Positions 17,251 to 46,599 of a stretch of DNA of 64,000 bases are shown here, one piece after another. Numbering within the stretch: the stretch's first letter is position 1; every line of letters starts with the position of its first letter. The position numbers and the translations under genes are program-made. The DNA is from Bacteroidia bacterium (GTDB lineage: Bacteria; Bacteroidota; Bacteroidia; NS11-12g; UBA9320). The notes below the pieces were generated by a model. That model worked only from the letters and a program-made list of their open reading frames with translations, searched no databases and was not told the origin of the DNA. Where the stretch lies: positions 56,521-120,520 of the forward strand of contig JAQWNJ010000017.1 of the NCBI GenBank assembly GCA_029268695.1, written 5' to 3'.

Positions 17251-18709
17251 TACTTATAATATCCGTTGAAATTTTTGCAGATAACAAACATAAAGGAATC
17301 CCTCCACCTGGATGCACACTACCACCACAAAAATACAAACCCTTGTGATGTTTATTAAAATTTGAATGCCTTAAAAAAGCTGACATCTTGTTGTTGGAAC
17401 TAGAACCATATAGTGCACCTTTATAGCTACCCGTCTTATCCCAAATCATTTGTGGTGTAAGGATGTGCTCAACCTCAATCATTTTCTCTATTTCTTCACC
17501 AAGTATGCGACTAAGCTTAGTCAGTATATTCTTTTTTGTCTCACTGATTAGACGACCCCAATCTTGATTTTCTACATAAGGTGCATTGACCATAACGAAC
17601 CAATTTTCACAATTAGAAGGTGCGTCATCTTTCTTACACTTACTACTTATTTGAACATAAACTGTTGGGTCTTCATCTATGGTATGATTTTTAAATATCG
17701 ATGTAAACTCTTTTCGATAATCTTCAGAGAAAAAGATATTGTGAAGTTCCAAATCCTTGAATTCCTTTTTAATACCCCAATAAAAAATCAAAGCTGAACT
17801 ACTTGGTTTATAATGCCTATTTTGGGCTTTCAGTAGCTTTTTTAATGGACCTTGAGATGCAGAAGCAATGTCCATATTGCAAATAGCTATATCATAAACC
17901 AAATCTTCCTGATTTACCTTGTATCCTTTATCAACCTTGACTAATTCATTCACATCAGTATTGAAATTAAATTGAACACCTAATTTTACTGCTTTTTCAT
18001 AGAGAGCGTCAACAATAGATCGCATACCTTTCTTCGGAAAATACGCTCCAATACCAAATTCATAATGCGGTATAATATTTAAAGTAGCTGGCGACTCATA
18101 AGGGTTTGAGCCATTATAAGTAGCATATCTATCAAAAAACTGAATTGTTTTTGAATTTGAAAATTGTTTTTGATTTTCGATGTGCATTTTTTTTAAAACC
18201 CCTACTTTATGAATACTTAAAAAACTTTTAAAAGTGTTCCAACTCAAGTAAGTGCCTAATTTGTGTAGAGATTTCTCTAAAAAAACATGATTAGTTATCT
18301 GATACTTTCTTTCACTGTCATCAAGAAATGAATCAATATTTTTTGGATTTTCATCTAATTTATCATGGAATTCCTTTTTTAATTTTTCTCGATCACAGTA
18401 CGCAGACAACTTGGTGTTATCCTCCCAAAAGTATTTACACAAAACATCTAATTCATCATAATCAAACGGAACATTATCAAGTCCATCAATGGTTAATAAA
18501 TCAAATACATACTGGGGCATAGTGAACAGTGATGGACCAGTGTCAAAACGATAACCTTGGCTTTTCCATACTCCCATCTTACCTCCATAATTAGATGATT
18601 TTTCATACACGGTAACCTTTACTTTCATGGCAGCTAATCTGATAGCTGACGCTAAACCGGCAATACCAGAACCTAAAATAACGGAATTCAGTGAATTGGA
18701 TGATCTCAA
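17231..18709 (-). CDS. Phytoene-desaturase-family FAD oxidoreductase (CrtI/CrtD-like; plausibly 1-hydroxycarotenoid 3,4-desaturase)
   Basis: N-terminal dinucleotide-binding motif VILGSGIAGLASAIRLA...VYEKSSNYGGK; 492 aa; C-terminal FCGGSVHPGGGIP typical of the CrtI family. Confidence 0.7.
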   Translation of the reverse strand: MRSSNSLNSVILGSGIAGLASAIRLAAMKVKVTVYEKSSNYGGKMGVWKSQGYRFDTGPSLFTMPQYVFDLLTIDGLDNVPFDYDELDVLCKYFWEDNTKLSAYCDREKLKKEFHDKLDENPKNIDSFLDDSERKYQITNHVFLEKSLHKLGTYLSWNTFKSFLSIHKVGVLKKMHIENQKQFSNSKTIQFFDRYATYNGSNPYESPATLNIIPHYEFGIGAYFPKKGMRSIVDALYEKAVKLGVQFNFNTDVNELVKVDKGYKVNQEDLVYDIAICNMDIASASQGPLKKLLKAQNRHYKPSSSALIFYWGIKKEFKDLELHNIFFSEDYRKEFTSIFKNHTIDEDPTVYVQISSKCKKDDAPSNCENWFVMVNAPYVENQDWGRLISETKKNILTKLSRILGEEIEKMIEVEHILTPQMIWDKTGSYKGALYGSSSNNKMSAFLRHSNFNKHHKGLYFCGGSVHPGGGIPLCLLSAKISTDIISNDFKIC

Positions 18710-18741
18710 TGTGTTGGCAATATCTGACTAATTCTATAGAA

Positions 18742-19266
18742 ATGAAAACACTAAAGCTGACTTTATGTTTACATTTGAAATATATGTTGCAAAGAACTCA
18801 GACTTTATTTCTTTTAGCTATCATAGTAATCTGTGGTACCCTATCAACTGTAAATATCCCATTCTATTCCAGTGAAAAAGAAAACGGGATTGAACGTGTT
18901 GAAGTATCTTTCAATAAGACAGAAATGATTGTCATCCAGCCAATGAAACATTCTGTAACAGAAAGCAATACGCTAATCATTAGCTGCCTAACTATTATTG
19001 GTATTCTAAGCATAGTAAGTCTTTTAAGTTTTAAGAATAGAAAATTACAATTATTACTTACCTCACTAAATTTTTTAGCTATAGGTCTTTTGATTAGCTT
19101 ATTGTACGTCTTTAGCTTAGGAATGGATTACTTTGGTCCGTCTGGGACATCATCATTTAAAATTAGTCTAGGCTTAATTTTATTAATAATATCATTTAAT
19201 GTGCTTGCTTTTCGCGGAATAAAAAAAGATGAAGAACTCATCAGATCAATGGATAGATTGAGGTAA
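18742..19266 (+). CDS. Hypothetical integral membrane protein (about 4 TM); start uncertain
   Basis: Hydrophobic segments; stop 2 nt before the ABC ATPase start. Track start 18691 overlaps the crtI-family start on the other strand; Met codons at 18742 and 18784 are alternatives. Confidence 0.4.
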   Translation: MKTLKLTLCLHLKYMLQRTQTLFLLAIIVICGTLSTVNIPFYSSEKENGIERVEVSFNKTEMIVIQPMKHSVTESNTLIISCLTIIGILSIVSLLSFKNRKLQLLLTSLNFLAIGLLISLLYVFSLGMDYFGPSGTSSFKISLGLILLIISFNVLAFRGIKKDEELIRSMDRLR

Positions 19267-19268
19267 TT

Positions 19269-20906
19269 TTGAAAATAATTAATATAAAAAACCTATCCGT
19301 TAAATTCAACCAAAAAGAGAAAGACTTTGAGGCTGTAAAAGGAATAAGTTTCTTCCTAAATATAGGAGAAATTCTTGGATTGATTGGAGAAAGTGGAAGT
19401 GGAAAATCTGTAACAAGTCAGTCCATAACTCGATTAATTGATGATGCCATATACAAAGGGTCGGTTGAATATTACACTGGTAGTGAATCGATTGATTTAC
19501 TTAAATGTTCAGACAAACAGTTACAATCAATCAGAAAAGAAAAGATATCCTATATTTTTCAAGAGCCTATGACAGCTCTCAATCCACTGATACAATGTGG
19601 GAGTCAAATACTAGAATCATCATCCTCAAAAAGTAATGAGACACTTTTTGAATTGCTAAATAAAGTAGAACTAAATGATGTTGAACGAGTCGCAAAGAGC
19701 TACCCCCACGAATTAAGTGGTGGTCAGAGACAACGGGTTATGATTGCAATGGCACTAGCAAAAAAACCTGAATTATTAATTGCTGATGAACCTACCACAG
19801 CATTAGATATAGCCATTCAAAAAGAAATTCTCACCTTATTGAAAAAATTAAGTAATGAAGAAAAAATGGGTATTCTATTCATAACCCATGATTTGATATC
19901 ACTTAACGAATTTGCAGATAAAATAGCTGTAATGTATCAAGGAGAGATTGTAGAACAAAACACAACCACCAAAATTCTCAATTCTCCAAAACATCCATAT
20001 ACAAGAGCCCTATTAGAAAGTAGGCCTTCACATCGTAAAAAAGGAAACATTCTTGAAGAAATCAATGATTTACTTGTTGAAATTGATGATAATCTCGAAT
20101 ATAAAAGCCCCAAAACTCAAAAACTCCCCATAAATAAGCCGAGTGAGAACATACTACTTGAACTTAAAGATATTAGCAAATACCATGTTCAAAAAAACTT
20201 TTTTAAAGAAACCAAACAAATCGTCTTGGATAAAATCAGCTTAAATATTAATCAAGGAGACATCGTTGGTTTAATTGGCGAGAGTGGTAGTGGGAAAAGT
20301 ACAATTGCTAAGATTATTTTACGCTTATGGAAAGAAACATCTGGAGCTATAAATTTGAATAGAAAAAATATACACACTGTATCTGATTTATCAAAAGAAA
20401 TTCAATTGGTATTTCAGGACCCATTTTCTTCATTGAATCCAAAACATTCAATCGGAGATGCTATTTCTGAAGTGTACCAAGTTTCAGAAGCGAATTTAAA
20501 ATCCCACGAAATCAGACAAAAAACTGTCGATCTTATTGAAACTGTGGGGCTATCAGAAAGTGATTTTAACAAATATCCTCATGAATTTTCAGGAGGACAA
20601 CGACAGCGAATTTGCATCGCAAAGGCTCTGGCAAAAAAACCAAAGTTTATTGTATTGGACGAGGCTGTTAGTGCTTTGGATGTAAGTGTCCAAGCAAAAA
20701 TACTTAATCTTCTTAATCAATTAAAAATACAAAATGGACTTACTTATCTGCTAATCTCGCATGACATGAATGTTGTGAGTTATTTCTGCAATAAATTAGT
20801 TGTCCTTAAAAATGGTAAAATCATCGAATCAGGAGATTCAGAAAAATTAATAACTAATCCAAAGTCTGATTACACAAAAAGCCTCTTGGAATCAAGCATA
20901 AATTGA
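19269..20906 (+). CDS. ABC transporter ATP-binding protein with two fused NBDs (peptide/oligopeptide DppD-DppF or GsiA type)
   Basis: Two Walker A motifs (GESGSGKS twice), two signatures (LSGGQRQR, FSGGQRQR), two Walker B motifs; HPYTRALLES motif typical of Opp/Dpp ATPases; no TM segments. Confidence 0.85.
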   Translation: MKIINIKNLSVKFNQKEKDFEAVKGISFFLNIGEILGLIGESGSGKSVTSQSITRLIDDAIYKGSVEYYTGSESIDLLKCSDKQLQSIRKEKISYIFQEPMTALNPLIQCGSQILESSSSKSNETLFELLNKVELNDVERVAKSYPHELSGGQRQRVMIAMALAKKPELLIADEPTTALDIAIQKEILTLLKKLSNEEKMGILFITHDLISLNEFADKIAVMYQGEIVEQNTTTKILNSPKHPYTRALLESRPSHRKKGNILEEINDLLVEIDDNLEYKSPKTQKLPINKPSENILLELKDISKYHVQKNFFKETKQIVLDKISLNINQGDIVGLIGESGSGKSTIAKIILRLWKETSGAINLNRKNIHTVSDLSKEIQLVFQDPFSSLNPKHSIGDAISEVYQVSEANLKSHEIRQKTVDLIETVGLSESDFNKYPHEFSGGQRQRICIAKALAKKPKFIVLDEAVSALDVSVQAKILNLLNQLKIQNGLTYLLISHDMNVVSYFCNKLVVLKNGKIIESGDSEKLITNPKSDYTKSLLESSIN

Positions 20907-23023
20907 AAAACTTGAAAAAGAAGAATAAAAGAACAAAAGAGGAAAAAAGTTACTCATCTGTACTAAATGTACTTGTTGATTATGCAAATAAACCACTCAA
21001 TTATAAACAGATTGGTGCTAAGATACCCAATCTGTCATTCAAAGAAGTCAGTCAAACACTGGAAAAGCTTGTTTATGAAGGAAAAATAAAATCACCTTCG
21101 GTTGGTAAATATGTCTTTGAGAAAAAAGATATGAATGAAATAGAGGGAACACTAGACTTCAATTCAAAAGGTGATGCCTACTTAGTTGCCGAAAACCTAG
21201 AAAAAGATATTAAAATTAAACATGGCAATACACTAGATGCATTTGATGGAGATACGGTAAAAGTAAAATTGTCGTACGTTAGCGGAAAAACTATGCCTAA
21301 AGCTTTTGTAACTTCAGTTATAAAAAGAAATAGAGAATATATCGTTGGAACGTTATCCTCAAATCAAAATACGCACTTTGTAATTCCTGACAACAACAAA
21401 ATTCACACTGATTTTTACATTCCAAAAGAATTCTTAAAAAATGCTAAAAATCAAGATAAGGTAAAGATAAAATTCAGAGATTGGCCAGCAAGAGCTAAGA
21501 ACCCTTGTGCTAGAATTGTCGAAGTGTTTGGAAAATCGGGAAATAATTCGGCAGAAATGCATGCAATAGTTGCAGAATTTGGATTTGAAACCAATTTCAG
21601 TGATAGTATAGAAAATGCCGCCAATCAACTACCAAAATCTATCCACAAAAAAGAGATTTCTAAAAGAGAAGATTTCCGAAAAATAACTACTTTCACTATT
21701 GACCCTGCTGATGCTAAAGACTTTGACGATGCATTAAGTTTTCAAGAATTATCAAATGGAAACACTGAAATTGGTGTACATATAGCTGATGTTTCACATT
21801 ATGTTAAACCTGCTGATATTATTGATAAAGAGGCAGTAAAAAGAGCTACTTCTGTGTATCTTATAGATCGAACAATCCCAATGTTACCAGAAGTATTGAG
21901 CAATAATATCTGCTCACTTAGACCTCATGAAGAATCTTTATGTTTTTCTGTAATTTTTGAATTTGATTCCAAGGCTAACATAACAAATTACCGGTTTGCA
22001 AAAACTATAATATATTCCGATCATAGGTTTTCATACGAAGATGCCCAACAAGTTATTGAATCAAAAAACGGTCCATACGCCACAGAACTTGAAAAGATGA
22101 ATGAAATTGCATCTAAACTAAGAAAAGAAAAATATAAAAATGGTGCAATCAATTTTGAAACAACAGAATTTCGATTTATTCTAGACAAAAGTGGAAAACC
22201 TACAGCCGTTTTACCCAAAGTAAGAAAAGAAGCCCATAAAATGATTGAAGAATATATGTTACTAGCCAATAAATATGTAGCTAAGCACCTATATTTAGAT
22301 AACAAAAAAATGCCTATTCCCTACAGAGTTCACGAAGAACCAAGTCCAGAAAAACTAGCTGAATTTGCAGAAACTGCAAAAAACTTCGGTTTCAGAATTG
22401 ATATTTCAAACTATAAACAGCTCGCATCCTCTATTAATCATATGGTAAGCAGAGTACAAGGGACACTGGAAGGGGATATTCTTCAACCCCTTGCGATTAG
22501 AAGCATGGAAAAAGCTTATTATACGACGAAGAAAATTGGACACTTTGGGCTCGGTTTTGACCATTATGCTCATTTTACCTCACCAATCCGTCGATATCCT
22601 GATCTTATTACTCACCGAATGTTGCATGATTACCTCGAGAACAAAAAAACCTTTGATTACGCTCAAGTTGAATCATTGGCTTCTCATAGCAGCAAGCAGG
22701 AACAAAAAGCGACAAATGCTGAAAGAGCAAGTATCAAATATAAACAGGTTGAGTACATGAGTGGTTTTAAAGGAGAAGAGTTTGAAGGAATTATAAGTGG
22801 AATTACTGAATGGGGTATTTATGTCGAAATTATTGAGAATAAATGTGAAGGTATGGTAAGATTACGAGATATTAGAGGAGATCATTATAGCTTTTATCCA
22901 GATAAGAAAATAGCCAAGGGAAGAAGAACTGGTAAAACTTATAGTATGGGTGATAAATTATGGATTCGCGTAAAAAACACTGATCTTAAAAAACGAAACA
23001 TTGACTTTCAAATTATCTCCTAA
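20903..23023 (+). CDS. rnr: Ribonuclease R
   Basis: RNB catalytic domain (DPADAKDFDDALS, HFGLGFDHYAHFTSPIRRYPDL) plus C-terminal S1 domain; 706 aa. Confidence 0.85.
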   Translation: MKNLKKKNKRTKEEKSYSSVLNVLVDYANKPLNYKQIGAKIPNLSFKEVSQTLEKLVYEGKIKSPSVGKYVFEKKDMNEIEGTLDFNSKGDAYLVAENLEKDIKIKHGNTLDAFDGDTVKVKLSYVSGKTMPKAFVTSVIKRNREYIVGTLSSNQNTHFVIPDNNKIHTDFYIPKEFLKNAKNQDKVKIKFRDWPARAKNPCARIVEVFGKSGNNSAEMHAIVAEFGFETNFSDSIENAANQLPKSIHKKEISKREDFRKITTFTIDPADAKDFDDALSFQELSNGNTEIGVHIADVSHYVKPADIIDKEAVKRATSVYLIDRTIPMLPEVLSNNICSLRPHEESLCFSVIFEFDSKANITNYRFAKTIIYSDHRFSYEDAQQVIESKNGPYATELEKMNEIASKLRKEKYKNGAINFETTEFRFILDKSGKPTAVLPKVRKEAHKMIEEYMLLANKYVAKHLYLDNKKMPIPYRVHEEPSPEKLAEFAETAKNFGFRIDISNYKQLASSINHMVSRVQGTLEGDILQPLAIRSMEKAYYTTKKIGHFGLGFDHYAHFTSPIRRYPDLITHRMLHDYLENKKTFDYAQVESLASHSSKQEQKATNAERASIKYKQVEYMSGFKGEEFEGIISGITEWGIYVEIIENKCEGMVRLRDIRGDHYSFYPDKKIAKGRRTGKTYSMGDKLWIRVKNTDLKKRNIDFQIIS

Positions 23024-23040
23024 AAATAAGAAGTGTAAAT

Positions 23041-24012
23041 TTGTTATTCATGCAAAAACTTAAAGAAATAATCGCTGTTTTTGAAGCTAATCTTCCTTCT
23101 ATAACAGAACAGCCAGGAGAACCAAGAGAAGTTTACGAGCCTATTTCTTACATTCTAAATATTGGTGGAAAACGCATCAGACCAGCAATGACGATTGCAG
23201 CATACAAACTCTACCAAGAAAAAATATCTGATGATGTCATAAAACTTGCTCAAGCTATTGAAATGTTTCACAATTTCACCCTTATGCATGATGATATTAT
23301 GGATAATTCATTATTGAGAAGAGGACACCAAACTGTCCATCTTAAATGGGACAATGCAACTGCCATACTCTGTGGAGATCTTCTCCAAATTGAAGTTTAT
23401 GAAAAACTTACTGAAATTGGAAGTATTGAGATTCTTAATCTATTCAACAAAATGGCCAGAGAATTGTGTGAAGGTCAAATGAATGACATGATGTTCGAAA
23501 CCAGAGAGATTGTTTCTAATGAGGACTACCTCCACATGATTAAACAAAAAACGGCTGTATTAATTGGTTTTAGTTTGCAAGCTGGTGCTCTATTAGGTGG
23601 TGCAAATGAATCTGAATCTAACGCCTTATACGACTTAGGAATATCTATGGGATTATCCTTCCAATTAATGGACGACTACTTAGATAGCTTTGGAGAAAAA
23701 GATAAGGTGGGAAAAAAGATAGGTGGCGATATTTTAAATAAAAAGAAAACATTTCTTTGGAATGAAATGTGGGCAAACCTAAACAGTCAGGAAAAAAAAT
23801 CATTGAATACTATTTTTGAAAGTGGAACTGATTCAGAGATTATTGATTATGTGAAAGATAAAATGAAATCAACAGGTGCAGATAAAAAAACACTCCAATT
23901 AGCTCAAAATCATGCGGCGAGAAATGGTCATATCTTAAGCCAAATGTCTTCAGAAGGTAATAAAGATTATTTAAATGAAATCATGACTTTACTATCTAAA
24001 AGAGAAAATTGA
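23041..24012 (+). CDS. Polyprenyl diphosphate synthase (trans-isoprenyl diphosphate synthase family)
   Basis: First and second Asp-rich motifs (LMHDDIMD, FQLMDDYLD); chain-length specificity not determinable. Confidence 0.8.
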   Translation: MLFMQKLKEIIAVFEANLPSITEQPGEPREVYEPISYILNIGGKRIRPAMTIAAYKLYQEKISDDVIKLAQAIEMFHNFTLMHDDIMDNSLLRRGHQTVHLKWDNATAILCGDLLQIEVYEKLTEIGSIEILNLFNKMARELCEGQMNDMMFETREIVSNEDYLHMIKQKTAVLIGFSLQAGALLGGANESESNALYDLGISMGLSFQLMDDYLDSFGEKDKVGKKIGGDILNKKKTFLWNEMWANLNSQEKKSLNTIFESGTDSEIIDYVKDKMKSTGADKKTLQLAQNHAARNGHILSQMSSEGNKDYLNEIMTLLSKREN

Positions 24013-24860
24013 AACCTTTTGATATCTATATTTCATCCTCTCAAGATGTTTTTGAGAATATTGCTCTTGAAGAATACTTTTTAACTAAATACAAAAAGGA
24101 TATTCTATTATTTTATATAAATGCAAATGCCGTTGTAATTGGTAAACATCAAAACCCATGGAAGGAAGTAGATTTATCCCCAGATAGAGATTACAAAGTT
24201 ATTAGAAGGTTAAGTGGGGGTGGGACAGTTTACCATGATCTAGGGAATATTAATTTTTCATTTATCAGAAATAAAGAAAGGGATTTTGTAAACTTCAAGG
24301 AACACATTATCCCAATAAGTCAAGCACTTGAACAACTAAATATTCCAAATACTATCTCTGAACGAAATGATTTATTTGTTGGAGAAAATAAGGTCAGTGG
24401 AAATGCTGAACACGTCAATAGTTCATTAAAAAGAATACTACACCACGGCACATTACTTTACGACAGTAATCTTATCAAGTTAAACGGAAGTATTAAACCA
24501 AATAAACCACTAGATATAAAAACCCATGCAGTACAATCCAAAAGAAGTCCTGTGGCTAACATGAGAGAAATACATGATTTGGGAAATACCAATTCCTTTT
24601 TAGATTCAATCATTAAAAAACTGAAAAATATCATTATTGTCAACTCCGTAAAAGAAATAGAACCCTCAAAAATTGAGACCATTACAAAGCTAATTGAGAA
24701 AAAATACATCACATCAGATTGGAACTTTGGTCATACGCCACAATTTAAGTATACCGGTAAATCTGGGGAAGTCTATCGTATACGAAAAGGGAAAGTGATT
24801 GAAACAAGTGATTCCACAAAAATTGGACTAACATTCAATAAAATTCTTGAAAATGACTAA
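24009..24860 (+). CDS. Lipoate--protein ligase / octanoyltransferase family protein (LplA/LipM-like catalytic domain only)
   Basis: N-terminal BPL/LplA/LipB domain with RRLSGGGTVYHDLGN motif; 283 aa, lacks the LplA C-terminal accessory domain. Confidence 0.6.
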   Translation: MKPFDIYISSSQDVFENIALEEYFLTKYKKDILLFYINANAVVIGKHQNPWKEVDLSPDRDYKVIRRLSGGGTVYHDLGNINFSFIRNKERDFVNFKEHIIPISQALEQLNIPNTISERNDLFVGENKVSGNAEHVNSSLKRILHHGTLLYDSNLIKLNGSIKPNKPLDIKTHAVQSKRSPVANMREIHDLGNTNSFLDSIIKKLKNIIIVNSVKEIEPSKIETITKLIEKKYITSDWNFGHTPQFKYTGKSGEVYRIRKGKVIETSDSTKIGLTFNKILEND

Positions 24861-25488
24861 AAAAGAACGAGCATCTAAGATTCATAAAATATTAGAATCA
24901 GAGTTTCCTGAAGTACCCATTCCATTAGATCATAAAGATCCATACACACTTCTGATTGCAGTATTATTGTCAGCCCAATGCACAGACGAACGAGTAAATA
25001 AAATCACTCCACTCCTATTCTCAAAAGCAGATAATCCATACGATATGATTAAAATGACTGTCGAAGAGATCAAGTCCATTATAAGACCTTGTGGATTATC
25101 TCCAATGAAGAGTAAAGGAATCTATGGTCTAAGTAAAATTCTAATAGAAAAATATGATGGTCAAGTTCCAAAAGATATGTCAGCACTTGAACAACTTCCT
25201 GCCGTTGGTCATAAGACAGCAAGTGTAGTTATGAGTCAAGCATTTGGTATTCCTGCGTTTCCTGTAGACACCCACATTCATCGTCTTGCTTATCGCTGGA
25301 AACTAAGCACTGGTAAAAATGTTAAAAAAACTGAAAAGGATCTTAAAGCTTGTTTTCCAATAGAATTTTGGAATAAAATTCATCTTCAAATCATTTTTTT
25401 TGGCAGAAAATATTGCCCAGCAAGAGGGCACAATCCACAAATCTGTCCAGTATGTAAAACCTATGGCCGTGTCTCATTATTCAAATAG
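24847..25488 (+). CDS. nth: Endonuclease III
   Basis: HhH-GPD core (LPAVGHKTASVVM) and C-terminal 4Fe-4S cluster loop C-x6-C-x2-C-x5-C (CPARGHNPQICPVCKTYGRV). Confidence 0.85.
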   Translation: MKMTKKERASKIHKILESEFPEVPIPLDHKDPYTLLIAVLLSAQCTDERVNKITPLLFSKADNPYDMIKMTVEEIKSIIRPCGLSPMKSKGIYGLSKILIEKYDGQVPKDMSALEQLPAVGHKTASVVMSQAFGIPAFPVDTHIHRLAYRWKLSTGKNVKKTEKDLKACFPIEFWNKIHLQIIFFGRKYCPARGHNPQICPVCKTYGRVSLFK

Positions 25489-25538
25489 GGATTTATTCTA
25501 AGTTTTCAGATTGATAGACCTAACTTTGCAATCCATAA

Positions 25539-26237
25539 ATGAAGCTAGAAATACTTTACGAAGACAATCATTTAATCGCGGTAAATAAACCTGCAGGACT
25601 TGTTGTTCAAGACAATGAACACGGCCTACCATCACTAGAGTACCATGTAAAGTCTTACATAAAAGTTAAATACAATAAACCTGGAGCAGTCTTTATTGGC
25701 TGTATTCACAGGTTAGACACTAATGTAACAGGTGTTGTATTATTTGCTAGAACAAGTAAAGCCCTTGCTCGAATGAATGAGCAATTTAAAGATCGAATAA
25801 TCCAAAAAATCTATGCTGCCCTAATTCGCCGCAAACCCCAGCCTATGGCTGGCACATTAGAACATTGGCTTAAAAAAGATCCAAAACAGAATAAAACAAA
25901 ACTATACCATGAAGAACAAAAGGGAAGTAAAAAAGCAGTACTTCATTATGAATTTATAAATACTGCCAATCATTGTTTCCTCTTAAAAATAAGACCTATC
26001 ACCGGGAGACCACACCAAATTCGTGTTCAATTAGCTCGAACATTCACAGGAATCGTTGGAGATGTAAAATATGGTCAAACAAAACCAACTTCTGATAAAA
26101 GTATCTACTTACATGCTTTAGGCTTATCCTTCAAACACCCGGTAACTAAAGAAAATTTAAATTTGCATGCCCCAATGCCTCAATTTGGAAATTGGAAATT
26201 TTTTAAAGACATCGAAAAAAATTTATTAAAAGAATGA
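25539..26237 (+). CDS. RluA-family RNA pseudouridine synthase
   Basis: LIAVNKPAGLVV...HRLDTNVTGVVLFART catalytic-Asp motif. Confidence 0.8.
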   Translation: MKLEILYEDNHLIAVNKPAGLVVQDNEHGLPSLEYHVKSYIKVKYNKPGAVFIGCIHRLDTNVTGVVLFARTSKALARMNEQFKDRIIQKIYAALIRRKPQPMAGTLEHWLKKDPKQNKTKLYHEEQKGSKKAVLHYEFINTANHCFLLKIRPITGRPHQIRVQLARTFTGIVGDVKYGQTKPTSDKSIYLHALGLSFKHPVTKENLNLHAPMPQFGNWKFFKDIEKNLLKE

Positions 26238-27859
26238 ATCAAATTGTAAAAATACCTAAAGCTAAAAATGAAGCGGTAAAATCGTATGCCCCAGGCAATC
26301 CTGAAACACTTAGTCTCAAAAGTAAATTACAGGAGATGAAAAATACTTCGGTTGATATACCTATGTATATTGGTAGTGAAAAAGTTTTTACTGATAATAA
26401 AGTATCTATTCATCCACCTCATGAGATAAGTCATTCACTTGGTTCATTTAACAAAGGAAATGCATCACATGTTGAAGCCGCTATAAATGCTGCGTTGAAA
26501 GCTAAGGAAAATTGGGCTAATATGCCATGGGAATCCAGGGCTGCAATATTCTTAAGGGCCGCGGACCTTCTTGCAGGACCATATCGCGATAAGATGAATG
26601 CAGCTACCATGCTTGCTCAGTCTAAAAATGCTATGCAAGCTGAAATTGATGCCGCATGTGAGATGATTGATTTTTTCAAATTCAATGTCCAATATATGAG
26701 TGAGATATATGCACAACAACCTCCTGAGAACTCACCCGGTGTATGGAACCAACTTGAGTATAGACCACTTGAAGGTTTTGTATTTGCACTTTCTCCTTTT
26801 AACTTTACAAGTATTGCTGCAAATCTATGCTCCGCTCCTGCTATGATGGGAAATACCATCGTGTGGAAACCTGCAGAAACCCAAATCTATAGTGCTCAAG
26901 TTATTATGGAATTATATAAAGAAGCTGGATTACCTGATGGAGTTATAAATTTAGTCTATGTAGACGGACCTACTACTGGTGACGTAATATTTAATCACAG
27001 AGATTTTGCTGGAATTCACTTTACTGGAAGTACAGGCGTATTTCGACAAATATGGAAAACTATAGGAAGTAATATTGAAAAATACCGAAGTTACCCAAGA
27101 ATTGTCGGTGAAACTGGTGGTAAAGATTTTGTAATGGTTCATGGAAGTGCAGACATCAATCAAGTAAATACAGCCCTAGTTAGGGGATCTTTTGAATTTC
27201 AAGGACAAAAATGTTCTGCAGCTTCCAGAGCATACATCCCTAAGAGTATGTGGAATGAGCTTAAACCGCTCCTCATTGAAACAACCAACAGCTTAAAAAT
27301 GGGAACTACTGAGGATTTTAGCAATTTTGTAAATGCTGTAATTGATAAAAAATCTTTCCTAAAAATATCAGGCTATATTGACCGAGTTAAAGAAGGTTCG
27401 GATGCTCAAATTATCGCTGGTGGTACTTATGATGACAGTGAGGGGTACTTCATTAGACCAACTATAATTGAAACTACGAACCCTTCATATGCTACCATGT
27501 GTGATGAATTATTTGGTCCAGTTTTATCCATTTACGTATATCCAGATGAGGAGTATGAAAAAACACTTCATTTAGTTGACAATACTTCAGAATATGCCTT
27601 GACAGGAGCCATTTATGCCAAAGGACGTGAACATATTAATACAGCCCTTAATATATTAAGAAATTCAGCAGGTAATTTCTATATCAATGATAAACCAACA
27701 GGAGCTGTTGTTGGTCAACAACCCTTTGGTGGTGCTAGAGGTAGTGGAACCAATGATAAAGCTGGAGCACCTATAAACTTGATGCGTTGGACATCCATGC
27801 GAACCATTAAAGAAACTTTTGTATCTCCTACCAATTATGAGTACCCATTTCATAGTTAA
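26234..27859 (+). CDS. pruA: L-glutamate gamma-semialdehyde (1-pyrroline-5-carboxylate) dehydrogenase
   Basis: Aldehyde dehydrogenase superfamily; catalytic Cys in FEFQGQKCSAASR; 541 aa, typical of Bacteroidota P5CDH. Confidence 0.75.
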   Translation: MNQIVKIPKAKNEAVKSYAPGNPETLSLKSKLQEMKNTSVDIPMYIGSEKVFTDNKVSIHPPHEISHSLGSFNKGNASHVEAAINAALKAKENWANMPWESRAAIFLRAADLLAGPYRDKMNAATMLAQSKNAMQAEIDAACEMIDFFKFNVQYMSEIYAQQPPENSPGVWNQLEYRPLEGFVFALSPFNFTSIAANLCSAPAMMGNTIVWKPAETQIYSAQVIMELYKEAGLPDGVINLVYVDGPTTGDVIFNHRDFAGIHFTGSTGVFRQIWKTIGSNIEKYRSYPRIVGETGGKDFVMVHGSADINQVNTALVRGSFEFQGQKCSAASRAYIPKSMWNELKPLLIETTNSLKMGTTEDFSNFVNAVIDKKSFLKISGYIDRVKEGSDAQIIAGGTYDDSEGYFIRPTIIETTNPSYATMCDELFGPVLSIYVYPDEEYEKTLHLVDNTSEYALTGAIYAKGREHINTALNILRNSAGNFYINDKPTGAVVGQQPFGGARGSGTNDKAGAPINLMRWTSMRTIKETFVSPTNYEYPFHS

Positions 27860-27869
27860 ATTACTGAAA

Positions 27870-28373
27870 ATGAGAAATTTATTTATTTTACACGTTTTAT
27901 TTCTAATTTTAGGATGCGGAGGTGGAAATCAACAATCTGGGTTCGAAAATGATGAACCTATTACGTCTGCCCCAATTGCTAAATCAAAAATTATCACTTC
28001 AGATACCCTTTTTATAGACGCATTAGGGGCGAATATGAGTGAAATGAAATTTAATAAAAAAGTTATACGTGTACCCGCTAATAAAAATATAACAATTGCT
28101 CTAACTAATGAGAGTTCAGATGCTACGATGCCTCACAACATTGTTATTATTAAAAAGGGATTTGCAAATGATGTTGGTCAAGCTGGCTTAAGGCATAAGG
28201 TAAATGCTTATGTAAAACCTAATGACCAGAATGTTATTGCAAATTCACCACTTGCTCAAATTGGGGAAACCGTTTATTTTTCCTTTAAAACTCCAGAAAT
28301 CGGAAATTATGAGTTCATATGCTCCTACCCAGGTCACTGGGGTTTAATGAAAGGTGAATTCATTACCAAATAG
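27870..28373 (+). CDS. Azurin-family blue copper protein, lipoprotein
   Basis: Lipoprotein signal LFLILGCGGG; C-terminal half aligns closely with azurin (YVKPNDQNVIANSP...ETVYFSF...GNYEFICSYPGHWGLMKGEFITK versus azurin YLKPDDSRVIAHTK...YMFFCTFPGHSALMKGTLTLK); His/Cys/His/Met copper ligands present. Track start 27819 replaced by Met at 27870. Confidence 0.8.
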   Translation: MRNLFILHVLFLILGCGGGNQQSGFENDEPITSAPIAKSKIITSDTLFIDALGANMSEMKFNKKVIRVPANKNITIALTNESSDATMPHNIVIIKKGFANDVGQAGLRHKVNAYVKPNDQNVIANSPLAQIGETVYFSFKTPEIGNYEFICSYPGHWGLMKGEFITK

Positions 28374-28375
28374 GG

Positions 28376-29875
28376 TTAAAATGGATCGTCCTCTCCTGGA
28401 TTAAATGGAGACATGTCGTTCATTTTACTGGTATAAGTTACACTACTATCAGTAAATGTGTCTGCCCCATAATTGCTGTAACCCCAATCGGTAAATTTAC
28501 CATAATGTTTCACAAACTTCAGATTAACTGTTCCTGGCGAGCCATTTCTATGCTTACGAATAATCAATTCAGTTAGACCTTCATTATCATTCCCTTCCTC
28601 GTCTTGTGTTATTCCATAATATTCAGGCCTGTAAATAAACGTCACAAGATCTGCATCCTGTTCAATAGATCCAGATTCCCGAAGATCAGATAACATCGGA
28701 CGTTTATCTTGTCTTTGCTCCACTGCCCTACTTAGCTGAGCTAATGCAATAACTGGGATATCTAACTCTTTTGCCAATGATTTCAATGATCTTGAAATGT
28801 AAGAAATTTCTTGCTCACGATTTCCTGCCATCTTTTTGTTTCCTTCGTCAGCCCTCATTAATTGAAGGTAATCAATGATAACCATATCTATATTTCGTTG
28901 ACGCTTTAGTCTTCGTGCTTTTGCCTTCAAATCTAATACGGTTAGGGCAGGTGTATCATCGATAAAAATTCCTGCATCTTCAATTGTACTGATCTTAGTA
29001 TGTAGCTGCTGCCATTCATGCTCAGCTAATTTCCCGCTTCTTATTTTTTCAGAGGATAATTCAGCTTCTGAAGAAATTAATCTTTTTACCAACTGAAGAC
29101 TACTCATCTCTAGTGAGAAAAGTGCTATATTTTTATTACCTACAACAGCAGCATTTCTGGCAACTGACAAAACAAAAGCTGTTTTACCCATTCCAGGTCT
29201 TGCAGCTAATATTATAAGATCACTATTTTGCCATCCGGAGGTCATTCGATCTAACTCTGTAAAACCAGTTGCAATTCCTGAAAGACCATCTTTATCTGAT
29301 TTTGATTCCTCAATATCCTTGATAGCTTTAGCAATCAAATCACTCACTGAATCATAATTTTTTGTCATGCTATCATTTTTGATCTCAAATAATTTCTTTT
29401 CAGATTCATCCAATAATTCAAATGCATCTGAGGTCTCTTCAAATGCTTTCTCTCCTATTACACCTGCTACAGAAATTAATTGACGTTGAATACTTTTCTG
29501 AATGACTATATGAGCATGATATTCAATATTTGCAGCACTACTAACTCTGTTAGTCAATGAAGTAATATAGAACGCTCCTCCAGCAGCTTCCAAATTAGCA
29601 TTTTTACGCAACTGTTCTGTCACAGTAAGAATATCTACAGGATTACCAGCCATGAATAGCTGGAGTATTGCCTCATAAATCATTTGATGACTCTCTACAT
29701 AAAATGCATCTTTCTTAAGGTAACTAGCCACTTTTTCAGGGGCATATTTTTCAAGCATAAGAGCCCCCAAAACAGCTTCCTCTAAATCACGAGCTTGCGG
29801 TTGTAGTTTTGACATCTGATTCAAATTACTAAGTGACATTTTACTTTTGGGGGTATTAACTCGTTTTTTTTCCAT
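28376..29875 (-). CDS. dnaB: Replicative DNA helicase DnaB
   Basis: N-terminal DnaB domain plus RecA-like domain with Walker A ARPGMGKTAFVLS; 499 aa, no intein. Confidence 0.9.
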   Translation of the reverse strand: MEKKRVNTPKSKMSLSNLNQMSKLQPQARDLEEAVLGALMLEKYAPEKVASYLKKDAFYVESHQMIYEAILQLFMAGNPVDILTVTEQLRKNANLEAAGGAFYITSLTNRVSSAANIEYHAHIVIQKSIQRQLISVAGVIGEKAFEETSDAFELLDESEKKLFEIKNDSMTKNYDSVSDLIAKAIKDIEESKSDKDGLSGIATGFTELDRMTSGWQNSDLIILAARPGMGKTAFVLSVARNAAVVGNKNIALFSLEMSSLQLVKRLISSEAELSSEKIRSGKLAEHEWQQLHTKISTIEDAGIFIDDTPALTVLDLKAKARRLKRQRNIDMVIIDYLQLMRADEGNKKMAGNREQEISYISRSLKSLAKELDIPVIALAQLSRAVEQRQDKRPMLSDLRESGSIEQDADLVTFIYRPEYYGITQDEEGNDNEGLTELIIRKHRNGSPGTVNLKFVKHYGKFTDWGYSNYGADTFTDSSVTYTSKMNDMSPFNPGEDDPF

Positions 29876-30007
29876 GCTGTTATATTATAATAAGCTGATA
29901 TAATATTAAGTTATTACGCTTAAGACTGTCAAAATTATTAAGCTCTGTAAAATTTCCTAGTAATAGAATAGACAATTAAAATTATTAACAAACAATCAAA
30001 AAATGTT

Positions 30008-30175
30008 TGTGGAACGTTGATAACCTAAATATAATCTTGTAAACAACTTATAATCAGAGTGATTTTATCAACACAGCTTTAAACATCACCTTAAAGTTTC
30101 ACGATATTACTCTATAATTTACTCATATATTTTTATTATAAAAAGCTGATAATCAATTACTTTATAGTTATCAAC
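30008..30175. promoter_or_regulatory. Cluster of DnaA-box-like motifs (TTATCAACA variants) beside an AT-rich tract in the dnaB-clpC intergenic region
   Basis: TTATCAACA at 30065-30073 (+), TTATCAAC at 30168-30175 (+), GTTGATAAC (reverse complement TTATCAAC) at 30016-30024, weaker TGATAATCA at 30147-30155; AT tract 30120-30145. Confidence 0.35.
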
Positions 30176-30286
30176 TTGAAAGTACCAAACAACTCAATTT
30201 GCAAAAATTGAAAGGACGTTTAAATCATAAATTGTAAAAAAATAGTAAAGGATTTGAATTGATGACATGAGACACTTTTTTGGTCT

Positions 30287-30294
30287 TATATTTG
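30287..30294 (+). promoter_or_regulatory. Candidate Bacteroidota sigma-A -7 element (TATATTTG) upstream of clpC
   Basis: Matches TAnnTTTG; 15 nt upstream of the clpC ATG at 30310; no well-spaced -33 TTTG, so weak. Confidence 0.25.
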
Positions 30295-30309
30295 TTATAT
30301 TCATATAAA

Positions 30310-32823
30310 ATGGAGGCACAATTTTCACCAGGAGTAAAAGAAGTAATACAATTTAGTCGTGAAGAAGCTATACGATTAGGTCACAGCTATATAGGTACTG
30401 AACACCTTTTATTAGGACTGATTAGACAAGGCGACGGTAAAGCAATAAGACACTTAAAAGGTATGGGTATTGATATGCTCAGACTCAAAAAAGCAATTGA
30501 AGACAGCATCAGAGACACTACAAATAAAACCTCCAATATTGGAAATATTCCACTAACTAAACAAGCCGAAAAAGCTCTGAAAATCACCTACTTAGAAGCT
30601 AAAATTTTTAAAGATGATGTCATAAGAACAGAACACTTATTGCTCTCCATATTAAGAGATGAAGATAACGTGGCTTCTCAAATACTCAACCAATTTGGTG
30701 TCGATTACGATTTATTTAAAAATGCAATGGAGGATAAATTTCCAGATGCATCAATCGAGATGAGTAGTGATTCACCTGAAGAATTTTACCAAGAAGAATC
30801 AGAAAAATCCACCCCACCACAAAGCAAACCCAAATCCAAAAGCAAAACTCCTGTACTAGACAATTTTGGGAAAGATTTGACCAAATTGGCAGAAGCTGAC
30901 AAATTGGATGCAATTGTAGGTCGAGAGAAAGAAATTGAACGGGTTTCTCAAATCTTAAGTAGAAGGAAAAAGAACAACCCAGTACTTATTGGAGAACCCG
31001 GTGTAGGAAAAACAGCTATTGCTGAAGGTTTAGCACTTCGTATCTCACAAAGAAAAGTCTCAAGGGTCTTATTCGATAAAAGAGTCGTAACACTTGATTT
31101 GGCAAGCCTTGTTGCGGGCACTAAATACAGAGGACAATTTGAAGAACGGATGAAAGCTGTCATGACTGAACTTGAAAAGACAGACAATGTCATTCTTTTT
31201 ATTGACGAAATACACACCATTGTCGGTGCTGGGGGAGCAAGTGGATCATTGGATGCATCTAATATGTTCAAACCAGCCCTTGCACGTGGAGAAATTCAAT
31301 GTATTGGTGCTACTACATTGGACGAATATCGCCAATACATTGAAAAAGACGGTGCACTAGAACGAAGATTTCAAAGTGTAATGGTTGAACCTACCTCATC
31401 AGAAGAAACACTTGAAATACTTGAAAACATAAAAACTAAATATGAAGATCATCACAGTGTAGAATATACCCCCGAAGCCCTCGATGCTGCTGTAAAAATG
31501 AGTGTCCGTTACATTACTGACCGTCATTTACCTGATAAGGCTATTGATGTGCTTGACGAAGTTGGTGCTCGTGTTCATTTAAGTAATATACATGTTCCAC
31601 AAAACATTTTAGAACTCGAAAAGAAAATTGAAGAAATTAAAGAAAATAAAAATCGTGTCGTAAAAAGTCAAAAATATGAAGAAGCTGCTCGACTTCGTGA
31701 CGAAGAAAAATCGTTGCTTGAAAACTTAGAAGACGAAAAAGTACAATGGGAAGAAGATAGTAAAACCCAACGATACAAAGTCAAAGAAGATGACGTAGCA
31801 GACGTAATTGCTATGATGACTGGTATACCTACCAAACGCATCGCTCAAAAAGAAGGAAACCGTCTCCTTAAAATGGGAGAAGAATTAAAAGGAAGTGTAA
31901 TTGGTCAAGATCAGGCTGTTGCTAAACTAACCAAAGCCATTCAACGAACAAGAGCTGGATTAAAAGCACCTAATAAACCCATTGGATCATTCATCTTCCT
32001 TGGAAGCACAGGTGTAGGTAAGACAGAAATGGCCAAAACACTCGCTAAATACTTGTTTGATTCTAAAGAAGCACTCATGAGAATTGATATGAGTGAATAC
32101 ATGGAAAAGTTTGCAGTATCCAGACTTGTTGGAGCTCCTCCAGGATACGTAGGTTACGAAGAAGGAGGCATTCTTACTGAAAAAATTAGGAGAAAACCAT
32201 ACGCTGTGATTCTTTTTGATGAGATTGAAAAAGCTCATCCTGATGTATTCAATCTCCTTCTTCAGGTATTGGATGAGGGTTTTTTAACAGATAGTCTGGG
32301 AAGAAAAGTTGATTTTAGAAATACAATTATCATCATGACCTCAAATATTGGGTCAAGACAACTCAAAGAATTTGGTGCTGGGGTTGGATTTGGAACAAAT
32401 GCCAAAATTCAAGCTTCTGATTTAAATTCCAAAGGTGTGATTGAAAATGCATTAAAACGCTTCTTCTCACCTGAATTTTTAAACAGAATTGATGATGTCA
32501 TTGTATTCAACTCTCTTGAAAAAGAACACATCCAACAGATACTAGAGTTATCATTAGAAGAATTAATCTCCCGAATTAAACAAATCGGGTTTAATATTAA
32601 ATTGGATAAAGAGGCAAAAAGATACCTAGCCGAGAAAGGATTTGATTCTGATTTTGGTGCTCGTCCGCTCAACAGAGCCATACAAAAATATTTAGAAGAC
32701 CCATTAGCGGAAGAAATTCTAAAATCCGACATCAATGAAGGCGACTTGATTCATGTTAAATACAGTAAAAAGCAAAACAAACTTGTCTTCAAAAAAGAAA
32801 AAGCTCCTGAAAAAGATAAATAG
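30310..32823 (+). CDS. clpC: ATP-dependent Clp protease ATP-binding subunit ClpC
   Basis: Two N-terminal Clp_N repeats, two AAA+ modules (GEPGVGKT; GSTGVGKT), short UVR-like linker (KYEEAARLRDEEK) rather than a ClpB coiled coil, ClpP-docking GVGFG loop. Start taken at MEAQFSP (track 30280). Confidence 0.85.
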   Translation: MEAQFSPGVKEVIQFSREEAIRLGHSYIGTEHLLLGLIRQGDGKAIRHLKGMGIDMLRLKKAIEDSIRDTTNKTSNIGNIPLTKQAEKALKITYLEAKIFKDDVIRTEHLLLSILRDEDNVASQILNQFGVDYDLFKNAMEDKFPDASIEMSSDSPEEFYQEESEKSTPPQSKPKSKSKTPVLDNFGKDLTKLAEADKLDAIVGREKEIERVSQILSRRKKNNPVLIGEPGVGKTAIAEGLALRISQRKVSRVLFDKRVVTLDLASLVAGTKYRGQFEERMKAVMTELEKTDNVILFIDEIHTIVGAGGASGSLDASNMFKPALARGEIQCIGATTLDEYRQYIEKDGALERRFQSVMVEPTSSEETLEILENIKTKYEDHHSVEYTPEALDAAVKMSVRYITDRHLPDKAIDVLDEVGARVHLSNIHVPQNILELEKKIEEIKENKNRVVKSQKYEEAARLRDEEKSLLENLEDEKVQWEEDSKTQRYKVKEDDVADVIAMMTGIPTKRIAQKEGNRLLKMGEELKGSVIGQDQAVAKLTKAIQRTRAGLKAPNKPIGSFIFLGSTGVGKTEMAKTLAKYLFDSKEALMRIDMSEYMEKFAVSRLVGAPPGYVGYEEGGILTEKIRRKPYAVILFDEIEKAHPDVFNLLLQVLDEGFLTDSLGRKVDFRNTIIIMTSNIGSRQLKEFGAGVGFGTNAKIQASDLNSKGVIENALKRFFSPEFLNRIDDVIVFNSLEKEHIQQILELSLEELISRIKQIGFNIKLDKEAKRYLAEKGFDSDFGARPLNRAIQKYLEDPLAEEILKSDINEGDLIHVKYSKKQNKLVFKKEKAPEKDK

Positions 32824-39116: not shown

Positions 39117-40409
39117 TTAAAAATCAGATAATAATCCTTCTGCATCTGCAAGTGTCCATCCAACAAATTCAGATTTATCAGCACCACCATCTTTAGCAGT
39201 TACTAATTTATTACCCGAAGAAACAAACTTAGCATCTGAAGCAGCAGCATCAGCACCTTCAGCTTTGTCAGCGAAAATATCTTCTACAGAAGACCAAGTA
39301 GTTGTATTTCCATCTGGCTCGCCATCTTCGTCTAATGTCCATGCAGTAGAGTTGAAAGAATTGTTAGCAATGTTAAGAGCTCCTGAAGAAAAGTTAGAAG
39401 ATACAACTGGCTCATCCAATTCAACATCAGCATTTTGATTGAATCCAAAGAAATAAAGACCTTCAACAGTTCCTCGAGCTTTTGATCTAAAATCAGTAAA
39501 CTCACCTTGAACAGCGTTACCCATCAATGAACCATTCTTTAATGTGAAAGAAGCTTCCGAATTTTCAGAACCTTCTGGTCCGTCAATCTCTAAACCATGG
39601 TCAGAGCTTTCTCCACCTATGTAAATGAAGTTATCAATAGTACCAGCATAAGCCTGATCAATATCGTAAGCGTCATCTCCTTGATACATTACCAATGCAT
39701 GATCTATGTTGACTGTTCCTCCAAAGCATTCGATACCATCATCAACATTAGCCACTACCTCTACGTGGTGGATAGTAGTACCTGTACCAACTCCACCCAA
39801 TGTAAGACCGTTGATTTCATTACCTTCACCGATTAAAGTACCTCCGTGACGGATAGAGATGTAAGTAATTATACCTGAATTATCTGCAGCATCAGGACCA
39901 CCGTAGTTACCTTCAACAACATCAGCAGGGATTCCTTCAATCTGCTCTGTGGCTCCTGTTTTTGGAGAAGTTGGTGCATTACCCAATACGATAAGACCAC
40001 CCCAGAAACCAGTTGCAGTAGCAGGATCCAAATTTGATCCAAATTTCTCTCCTAAAGCGATCTCATCAGCGATAGATGTAAAGATAATTGGATTTTCTGC
40101 AGTTCCTGCAGCGATAATTTTTGCTCCTCTTGCTATAACTAGAGATGAAGCATTTGCACCTGTTCCAGCTTCGCCTTTAACGATTGTACCAGGTTGAATT
40201 GTTAATGTTACTCCACTTTTAACTACAACCCTATCTTTTAAAATATGAAACTTGTCTGAAGACCATGTTTCATCTTCAGAAATAAACCCAGAATGATCTA
40301 CTGAATTAGCATTAACAGTTGGTTCAGTGATAATATCATCATCAGAGTCACATGCAGTAAAGAATAAAGATAAAAGGATGATTGAAAATAATAATGTTTT
40401 GCTTTTCAT
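39117..40409 (-). CDS. Hypothetical surface-exposed lipoprotein (Gly/Asp/Thr-rich, beta-rich), upstream of TBDR
   Basis: Signal peptide MKSKTLLFSIILLSLFFTAC, then CDSDDDIITE, an acidic Bacteroidota lipoprotein surface-export signal; 430 aa mature protein; track start 40463 replaced by the Met that gives a proper signal peptide. Confidence 0.55.
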   Translation of the reverse strand: MKSKTLLFSIILLSLFFTACDSDDDIITEPTVNANSVDHSGFISEDETWSSDKFHILKDRVVVKSGVTLTIQPGTIVKGEAGTGANASSLVIARGAKIIAAGTAENPIIFTSIADEIALGEKFGSNLDPATATGFWGGLIVLGNAPTSPKTGATEQIEGIPADVVEGNYGGPDAADNSGIITYISIRHGGTLIGEGNEINGLTLGGVGTGTTIHHVEVVANVDDGIECFGGTVNIDHALVMYQGDDAYDIDQAYAGTIDNFIYIGGESSDHGLEIDGPEGSENSEASFTLKNGSLMGNAVQGEFTDFRSKARGTVEGLYFFGFNQNADVELDEPVVSSNFSSGALNIANNSFNSTAWTLDEDGEPDGNTTTWSSVEDIFADKAEGADAAASDAKFVSSGNKLVTAKDGGADKSEFVGWTLADAEGLLSDF

Positions 40410-40496
40410 TTTGTTATTTGTTGTTAATTTTATACTGCAACGTTGGTTAAGTAATATTATCAATAGGTTAACAAAATTTTATTTTTTCACTAATGT

Positions 40497-44980: not shown

Positions 44981-45050
44981 CAGTCCTTGTATCCATACGG
45001 GTCTTCGCATTAACATTGGAGAATAATAATTATTTAAAACAATTAACAAA

Positions 45051-45323
45051 ATGAACAAATCAGATTTAATCTCAGCTATGGCTGATTCAGCTGGTATCTC
45101 AAAAGCACAAGCTGGTGAGGCACTAAACGCATTTATGGATTCTACTTCTTCTGCTCTTAAAAATGGAGAGAAACTTATCCTTGTTGGATTCGGAACTTTC
45201 TCTGTAAGCAAAAGAGCTGCTAGAACTGGTAGAAACCCAAGAACTGGAAAAGAAATTCAAATCGCTGCTAAAAATGTTGTAAAATTCAAAGCAGGTTCTG
45301 GACTTTCTGATAAAGTTAATTAA
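45051..45323 (+). CDS. hup: HU-family DNA-binding protein
   Basis: 90 aa; [11 protein letters not shown]...[28 protein letters not shown], the canonical HU arm region. Confidence 0.9.
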
Positions 45324-45344
45324 TATTTACCTAGTAAATATTTT

Positions 45345-46598: not shown

Positions 46599-46599
46599 A

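Follow-up and report, generated by a model that had tools for sequence, protein, structure and literature searches.

Conserved DnaA-Box Motifs at Fixed Spacing in the Divergent dnaB–clpC Promoter Region of Uncultured Marine Bacteroidia: Probably Not a Replication Origin

Introduction

Binding of the initiator DnaA upstream of the replicative helicase gene dnaB has been mapped in Mycobacterium tuberculosis and M. smegmatis by IDAP-seq and ChIP-seq, and the M. tuberculosis site is among the five strongest genome-wide in vitro (PMC7738170). In Caulobacter crescentus, dnaB has predicted DnaA boxes and is a member of the DnaA regulon, according to the account of Hottes 2005 that is given in PMC8203912. 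Clusters of DnaA boxes outside oriC are furthermore described for Bacillus subtilis, where they regulate neighboring genes and influence initiation (PMC3245932). At bacterial oriC itself, the basal unwinding system consists of DnaA boxes, DnaA-trios, and an AT-rich element (PMC6669920, PMC8287927).

Here, we analyzed a 64 kb stretch of DNA from an uncultured marine Bacteroidia bacterium (64,000 nt; hereafter, the window), in which dnaB and a divergent clpC gene are separated by a spacer with DnaA-box motifs. The textbook consensus of the DnaA box is TT(A/T)TNCACA. What defines the datA and DARS loci of E. coli is how they act biochemically on DnaA, through ATP hydrolysis or the release of ADP, together with their IHF/Fis sites. 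Promoters of Bacteroidetes differ from the sigma-70 type and have the −7 consensus TAnnTTTG. To our knowledge and in the literature searched, hardly anything is known about how Bacteroidota control their replication, and we know of their origins only as computational predictions, usually far from dnaA; the oriC of Cytophaga hutchinsonii was reportedly confirmed experimentally by Xu in 2012.

Like the dnaB loci of Mycobacterium and Caulobacter, the spacer has boxes upstream of the replicative helicase gene and away from oriC, and the implied logic would be the same, i.e., the initiator controls the supply of the helicase that it loads. Unlike these loci, it belongs to Bacteroidota. Moreover, the present array is larger (four to six sites at fixed distances of 83 and 103 bp), is common to a divergent clpC promoter, and uses a local box variant, TTATCAACA. 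With the clusters of B. subtilis it shares an intergenic position and several boxes away from the origin. By analogy to these clusters, which lie between or upstream of genes that some of the boxes regulate and which can titrate DnaA, we propose the same for the present array; however, there is no homology or synteny between the two (PMC3245932). An AT-rich intergenic region of ~430 bp that holds multiple boxes on both strands is also reminiscent of a bacterial oriC, but the spacer is without a skew switch, conserved trios or unwinding element, or an indicator gene nearby, and its flanking genes are oriented inward. As a non-origin DnaA-box cluster of defined geometry, the array finally resembles datA and DARS, and it differs from them in its promoter distance from dnaB.

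Results

The Spacer Between dnaB and clpC Is a Divergent Promoter Region

The spacer comprises positions 29876–30309 (434 bp) and has a GC content of 23%, in a window of ~33% GC. On its left side, dnaB (28376–29875, minus strand), the proposed regulated gene, encodes the replicative DNA helicase; the assignment is based on TIGR00665 (552 bits, cut-off 385), and the Pfam families DnaB and DnaB_C were matched on the identical DnaB protein from TARA contigs. A first-pass annotation of the window, made from the sequence alone, was thus right in placing dnaB directly next to the gap. The divergent neighbor on the right side (30310–32823, plus strand) encodes a ClpC-type Hsp100 ATPase with Pfam matches to Clp_N (two), AAA, AAA_lid_9, AAA_2, and ClpB_D2-small and a weak match to UVR; the protein scores under the ClpB and ClpA equivalog cut-offs. 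Since dnaB lies on the minus strand and clpC on the plus strand, the gap at 29876–30309 is a divergent promoter region. No RNA family was detected by Rfam in the whole window (gathering threshold) or in the region 29700–30500 (E ≤ 1), and no tRNA genes were found.

The source organism is an uncultured marine member of the Bacteroidia. An identical DnaB is encoded on contigs of up to ~195 kb from TARA Oceans and other marine metagenomes, and the nearest genomes are MAGs labelled Bacteroidia or Sphingobacteriales bacterium. Among six TARA/ENA contigs, the spacer differs by a single SNP (position 30051), and strain-level variation is therefore uninformative.

The annotation had also described this gap as the only long non-coding stretch in the window, which does not hold, as the gaps at 44981–45479 (499 bp) and 46599–47082 (484 bp) are longer. 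Both of these lie between long ORFs, have 31–33% GC, and lack an Rfam match; the former holds possible ORFs of 81–90 aa, and the latter is located upstream of a TonB-dependent receptor gene. Pfam (E ≤ 1e-5) gave no match for a 448-aa ORF beside a TonB-dependent receptor gene (39117–40463, minus strand).

Conservation of Four Box Positions and Their Spacing

The divergent arrangement of dnaB and clpC with a spacer of ~415–455 bp is kept in ~25 species (DnaB 75–97% identical) and in two distant ones. A MAFFT alignment of 21 orthologous spacers (uncultured marine Bacteroidia) revealed four conserved box positions whose spacing is fixed; the mean column information amounts to 1.60 bits for the boxes compared to 0.67 bits for the remainder of the central spacer. 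The box motifs are under selection. Orthologous positions toggle between TTATCAACA, TTATCCACA, TTATACACA, TTATGCACA, TTATTCACA, and TTTTCCACA, a substitution pattern that fits TT(A/T)TNCACA, with position 5 free and position 3 being A or T.

Box 1 (29982–29990, plus strand) is degenerate in the present genome, where it reads TTATTAACA, which is why it is absent from the first-pass list of motifs. Its alignment columns are T18 T21 A20 T21 N [C14/A7] A21 C21 A21, and nine of the 21 species have TTATCCACA at this position. Box 2 (30015–30023, minus strand; TTATCAACG) corresponds to the motif listed there as GTTGATAAC (30016–30024) and shows the columns TT[A15/G6]T N A A C G, in which position 6 is always A and position 9 always G. 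Box 3 (30065–30073, plus strand; TTATCAACA) lies exactly 83 bp from box 1, is the sole site of the spacer with at most one mismatch to TTATCCACA, and has the columns TT[A17/T3]T N [A12/C9] A C A. Box 4 (30168–30176, plus strand; TTATCAACT) follows 103 bp after box 3 within a conserved inverted repeat; here, TT[A/T]TCAAC is kept in 19–21 of the 21 species, and position 9 is not kept. The distances between boxes 1 and 3 (83–84 bp in every relative) and between boxes 3 and 4 (103–104 bp across relatives) correspond to about 8 and 10 helical turns, i.e., 83 and 103 bp in the window.

Together with two weak sites, the four conserved boxes span 195 bp (29982–30176). The coordinates of the previously listed motifs, including TTATCAACA at 30065–30073, TTATCAAC at 30168–30175, and a weaker TGATAATCA at 30147–30155, proved correct. 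Their description as three 8/9 matches did not, since only the motif at 30065–30073 matches TTATCCACA in eight of nine positions and the other two are 7/9 matches as 9-mers (TTATCAACG and TTATCAACT); the boxes are degraded in the present genome, with one at 8/9 and the rest at 7/9. Boxes 1 and 3, which follow TT(A/T)TNMACA, are conserved among the orthologous promoter regions of all 21 species and are likely DnaA sites. Box 2 is less certain in this respect.

One relative deviates in length. In contig JAGYJG010000001.1 (L011, 3383–4000), the spacer measures 618 bp and is ~185 bp longer than all others. It is without the 8-mers TTATCAAC and TTATCCAC and retains the one-mismatch 9-mers TTTTCCACA and TTACCCACA; an insertion or a rearrangement of the box array may account for the long spacer.

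The Boxes Track dnaB Across Lineages

Boxes were counted in the 300 bp before dnaB (upstream region) and elsewhere in 76 loci, with the clade defined by a DnaB of at least 75% identity. Within the clade, boxes with at most one mismatch occur 42 times in 7.2 kb of upstream sequence vs. 28 times in 189.5 kb elsewhere (39-fold). At more distant loci, the enrichment is 6.3-fold (23 in 15.6 kb upstream vs. 101 in 432.6 kb elsewhere). The upstream regions together hold 15 copies of the perfect box TTATCCACA, and the remaining 622 kb of the 76 loci hold none.

Boxes are also present where dnaB has a changed upstream neighbor (L023, L025, L031, L039, L045, L050, L056, and L059). The upstream gene differs, and is sometimes co-oriented, in MAGs that carry the labels Chitinophaga, Saprospiraceae, Spirosomataceae, and others, and there too one to three boxes lie within ~300 bp of the dnaB start. 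Two distant loci that retain clpC have boxes at most 125 bp from dnaB (two in L035 and one in L041). This persistence of the boxes next to other neighbors narrows the regulatory target to dnaB. The dnaB loci of Bacteroidales and Ignavibacteria had no boxes, and the link between boxes and dnaB is thus not phylum-wide.

For the case that the spacer was no origin, the first-pass annotation had suggested a DnaA-titrating or DnaA-regulated promoter of clpC or dnaB. This suggestion is favored by our data and narrowed to dnaB, with clpC possibly, but not necessarily, under the same control. We regard the spacer as a divergent promoter region with a conserved DnaA-box array of fixed geometry that is not the replication origin, which is the probable reading of the locus; transcriptional control of dnaB would probably be its main role and titration a side effect. 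Several boxes clustered in a region that is non-origin by skew could instead represent a dedicated DnaA-control locus of the datA/DARS type or a pure titration cluster, which would regulate initiation rather than dnaB transcription. Four to six sites at an invariant, helically phased spacing of 83 and 103 bp would suit such a locus, additional conserved blocks could be the sites of an architectural protein comparable to IHF at datA, and clusters outside oriC are known to affect initiation timing in B. subtilis (PMC3245932). However, in many lineages with otherwise different spacers the boxes follow the dnaB promoter at a promoter-like distance, and the number found there in some lineages, no more than one or two, is too small for a titration locus. 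We therefore consider a dedicated control locus unlikely.

Predicted Promoters and Further Conserved Elements

Two conserved motifs in the spacer, read off the alignment at 29930–29937 (minus strand) and 30287–30294 (plus strand), are presumably −7 elements of the Bacteroidetes type. The first, TAATTTTG, would belong to the dnaB promoter and falls into the columns TCAAAA.TA, which are conserved in 21 species; this predicts a transcription start near 29925 and a leader of ~50 nt. A conserved TTAT(C) pentamer at 29911–29915 lies downstream of the start site within the predicted leader and might represent a partial DnaA box. The second, TATATTTG, is part of the clpC-proximal element TTTGGTCTTATATTTGTT (TTTGG..TTATATTTGTT; 30279–30296, plus strand), which lies ~15 nt before the clpC ATG, is unique in the window, and is invariant in the alignment. 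It occurs once per locus in 23 loci and is invariant in these 23 species although DnaB is only 76–97% identical. As the element holds its own −7-type motif, the clpC core promoter appears to be separate from the boxes; as its conservation exceeds the needs of a −7 box, it may be a specialized promoter or operator for clpC. A −33 element could not be recognized at either predicted promoter, with no −33 TTG at the usual distance for clpC. Among the 120 matches listed in a metagenome scan with the clpC-proximal element (TTGGNNTTATATTTGTT), two were clpC loci and nearly all others chance.

Relative to the predicted dnaB start, the centers of boxes 1 to 4 are located at about −60, −95, −145, and −245, which places the candidate DnaA sites upstream of the predicted dnaB core promoter, at about −60 to −250. 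All boxes lie upstream of both predicted core promoters, and none overlaps a −7 element.

Several further elements are conserved between and around the boxes. The most conserved block (30000–30025; AAAATGT..GTG.AACGTT.A.AAC) has near-invariant columns and contains box 2 and GTTCCACA (30008–30015, minus strand). The latter is an inverted copy of the motif GTTYCACR, which is found as GTTTCACG in conserved columns at 30096–30103 (plus strand), ~88 bp apart; two of the seven matches in the window fall into the spacer. Going by its sequence, GTTYCACR may be a weak DnaA site or a lookalike of a parS half-site. A parS site was considered because of the resemblance of GTTYCAC to the half-site and rejected, as the window holds no full parS within three mismatches beyond chance. 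Two direct-repeat modules with 80% identity and a spacing of 99 bp form another group, one at 30037–30056 (plus strand; TAA..CT.AT.ATCA, repeat family D3, conserved columns) located 8 bp before box 3, and one at 30136–30155 (plus strand) located 12 bp before box 4. The second copy shares the conserved CT.AT.ATCA columns and contains the TGATAATCA of the first-pass list. Each module precedes a TTATCAAC box by 8–12 bp, and both modules are conserved across species. Finally, a conserved inverted repeat, AGTTAT-N17-A[T/C]AACT (30166–30171 and 30189–30194), encloses box 4, and in L004 its arms extend into a longer palindrome. The repeat (30166–30194) may be the operator of a dimeric regulator, instead of or besides a DnaA site.

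Boxes 2 and 4 form a distinct class (class II), which shares GTTATCAAC, lacks an A at position 9, and is embedded in conserved palindromes (AACGTT and AGTTAT-N17-ATAACT, respectively). Owing to this deviation and embedding, they may be weak DnaA sites or sites of another factor. With the CT.AT.ATCA modules, GTTYCACR, and AACGTT, the region is more elaborate than a simple DnaA-regulated promoter. One could envisage a non-origin, "orisome-like" scaffold, on which DnaA and at least one further factor jointly time the expression of the helicase and the ClpC unfoldase while sequestering DnaA; CT.AT.ATCA, GTTYCACR, AACGTT, and AGTTAT-N17-ATAACT would be candidate sites of the second factor. We hold this to be doubtful. 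Still less likely is a variant in which the spacer is the true, dnaB-linked oriC of the lineage and its skew signal is masked.

The special features of boxes 2 and 4 also bear on the idea that an unrelated transcription factor uses the TTATCAAC-type motifs as its operators and that their likeness to DnaA boxes is a coincidence. Their common GTTATCAAC, the consistent lack of A at position 9, the palindromes around them, and the further conserved motifs in the vicinity would all be compatible with such a factor. Boxes 1 and 3, on the other hand, reproduce the full 9-mer consensus including the known tolerated positions, and many species carry the perfect E. coli box, for which the ratio of 15 copies of TTATCCACA upstream of dnaB to 0 elsewhere is hard to reconcile with coincidence. 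An unrelated factor is therefore a rather improbable explanation of the array as a whole.

The Spacer Lacks the Signatures of a Replication Origin

The first-pass annotation had put forward the spacer as a candidate oriC, with an AT tract (30120–30145) as DNA-unwinding element. In line with this proposal, the multi-box array is conserved over ~430 bp, keeps a fixed spacing, includes many conserved blocks, and adjoins a replication gene, and the lack of dnaA in the window is no counterargument, as oriC is commonly located far from dnaA in Bacteroidetes (PMC4755523). However, strand composition points in another direction. We split the replication component of the third-codon-position skew from the transcription component by means of genes of both orientations. 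For the plus strand, the replication component of the GC3 skew was −0.15 to the left of the spacer and −0.11 to its right, i.e., the strand is C-rich on both sides; among the genes, 24 of 27 to the left and 21 of 24 to the right had a negative GC3 skew, and the sign of the AT3 skew is also the same on both sides. Cumulative G3−C3 changes by −338 over the left 30 kb and by −331 over the right 34 kb, with the minimum at 62 kb, at the right end of the window, and not at 30 kb. Because the sign is the same on both sides and the minimum lies at 62 kb, the window represents one replichore, with forks moving from right to left. A cumulative GC-skew minimum away from the spacer was what the annotation itself had named as evidence against an origin, and at the scale of the window this is the observed situation.

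Gene orientation does not flip at the spacer either. Plus-strand genes account for 63% of the coding bases on the left and 61% on the right (~62% on both sides), and nine consecutive genes to the left of dnaB (18691–28373) point into the spacer. As the plus strand is C-rich over positions 1–64000 yet carries 62% of the coding bases, most genes of the window would be head-on to replication.

The relatives, for which skew was computed on 4-kb flanks, gave a similar picture. All 24 species are G-rich on the dnaB side, and 18 of 21 show this sign on the clpC side as well. Where enough data were available for both sides, the sign was the same in 17 of 20 species and an origin-type pattern, with a switch, was seen in only three. 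In several distant box-bearing lineages, dnaB lies on the C-rich (lagging-type) side and hence not immediately beside an origin.

The proposed unwinding element is equally inconspicuous. Columns of the AT tract are not conserved and contain GC in relatives, and the window holds ~147 comparable 26-nt tracts as well as ten pure A/T runs of at least 18 nt. The definition of DnaA-trios calls for three or more (NAN) repeats in the correct orientation, no farther than 16 bp from a box (PMC8287927). By eye, AAC AAT CAA AAA (29991–30002) fits this permissive pattern in an A-rich genome, and it is not conserved in relatives; the same lack of conservation applies to the TAG-trio-like run TAGTAATAGAATAGA (29959–29973). 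With regard to box number, Ori-Finder expects a cluster of three or more DnaA boxes, each with no more than one mismatch (PMC10225481, Table S1). The spacer has one (30065–30073), and spacers of relatives have one to three, the four conserved positions being reached if two mismatches are allowed. Three one-mismatch 9-mers (TTATCCAAA, TTATCCAGA, and CTATCCACA) do occur within 540 bp at 57275–57811, inside the gene at 56922–58505, and are probably due to chance.

No oriC indicator gene (dnaA, dnaN, rpmH, gidA, and others) is adjacent to the spacer, which is flanked by dnaB and clpC. Since oriC is commonly far from dnaA in Bacteroidetes (PMC4755523), a missing dnaA or indicator gene is a weak criterion here, and the indicator-gene table of Ori-Finder 2022 has no Bacteroidetes entry. 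A tblastn search for dnaA in the window and 79 loci, with an E. coli DnaA sequence as query, yielded no hit. Given that a skew switch at the spacer is missing from the window and from 17 of 20 related species, that no unwinding element is conserved, and that only one box has at most one mismatch, an oriC function of the spacer in this lineage is highly improbable; conversely, we are confident that the spacer is not the origin of the chromosome.

Cross-Species Conservation Carries the Evidence for the Boxes

The motif TTATCAAC occurs six times in the 64 kb window, compared to 4.6 expected copies, and three of these six lie within a 160-bp stretch of the spacer. The first-pass statement that the repeats are unlikely by chance was borne out for this motif, as three or more copies of TTATCAAC never arose in 5000 dinucleotide shuffles of the gap. 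It was weakened by the finding that some 8-mer occurs three times or more in 212 of 2000 shuffles of the AT-rich gap, which makes a single sequence weak evidence. The strength of the box evidence comes from cross-species conservation and not from the lone sequence. Although repeated 8-mers are thus not rare in shuffles, chance in AT-rich DNA is a practically negligible explanation of the array, given 0/5000 shuffles for TTATCAAC and the conservation of its positions across 21 species, which refutes it.

Discussion

We observed the motifs directly, together with their conservation, the link to dnaB in different lineages, and the lack of origin signatures. On this basis, we infer DnaA binding, a sign of regulation, and titration. 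In the proposed mechanism, DnaA would bind boxes 1 and 3 (TTATNMACA, 83 bp apart) and probably also the weaker sites, i.e., box 2, box 4, and GTTYCACR. Through these sites, the level and activity of the initiator would set transcription of the helicase gene. Since the −7 element is free of overlapping boxes, activation appears likelier than repression, and steric repression would be less plausible than upstream activation or the formation of a cooperative oligomer. As a by-product, the array may sequester some DnaA, as a DnaA-box cluster would. The clpC gene has its own invariant proximal promoter element, and it is possibly, though not certainly, co-regulated with dnaB.

In the literature searched, a DnaA-box array upstream of dnaB has not previously been described for Bacteroidota. 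Such an array is tied to the dnaB promoter in several groups of this phylum, namely in the marine clade and in MAGs labelled Chitinophaga, Saprospiraceae, and Spirosomataceae, with TTATC(A/C)ACA as the local box variant. Origin predictors that use DnaA-box clusters could be misled by it in genomes and MAGs of Bacteroidota. If the scaffold with a second factor, which we regard as doubtful, were true, replication initiation would be linked to proteostasis in marine Bacteroidia. For the probable reading as a DnaA-box array at the dnaB promoter, the regulatory link from DnaA to the helicase that is described for Mycobacterium and Caulobacter would extend to a third phylum.
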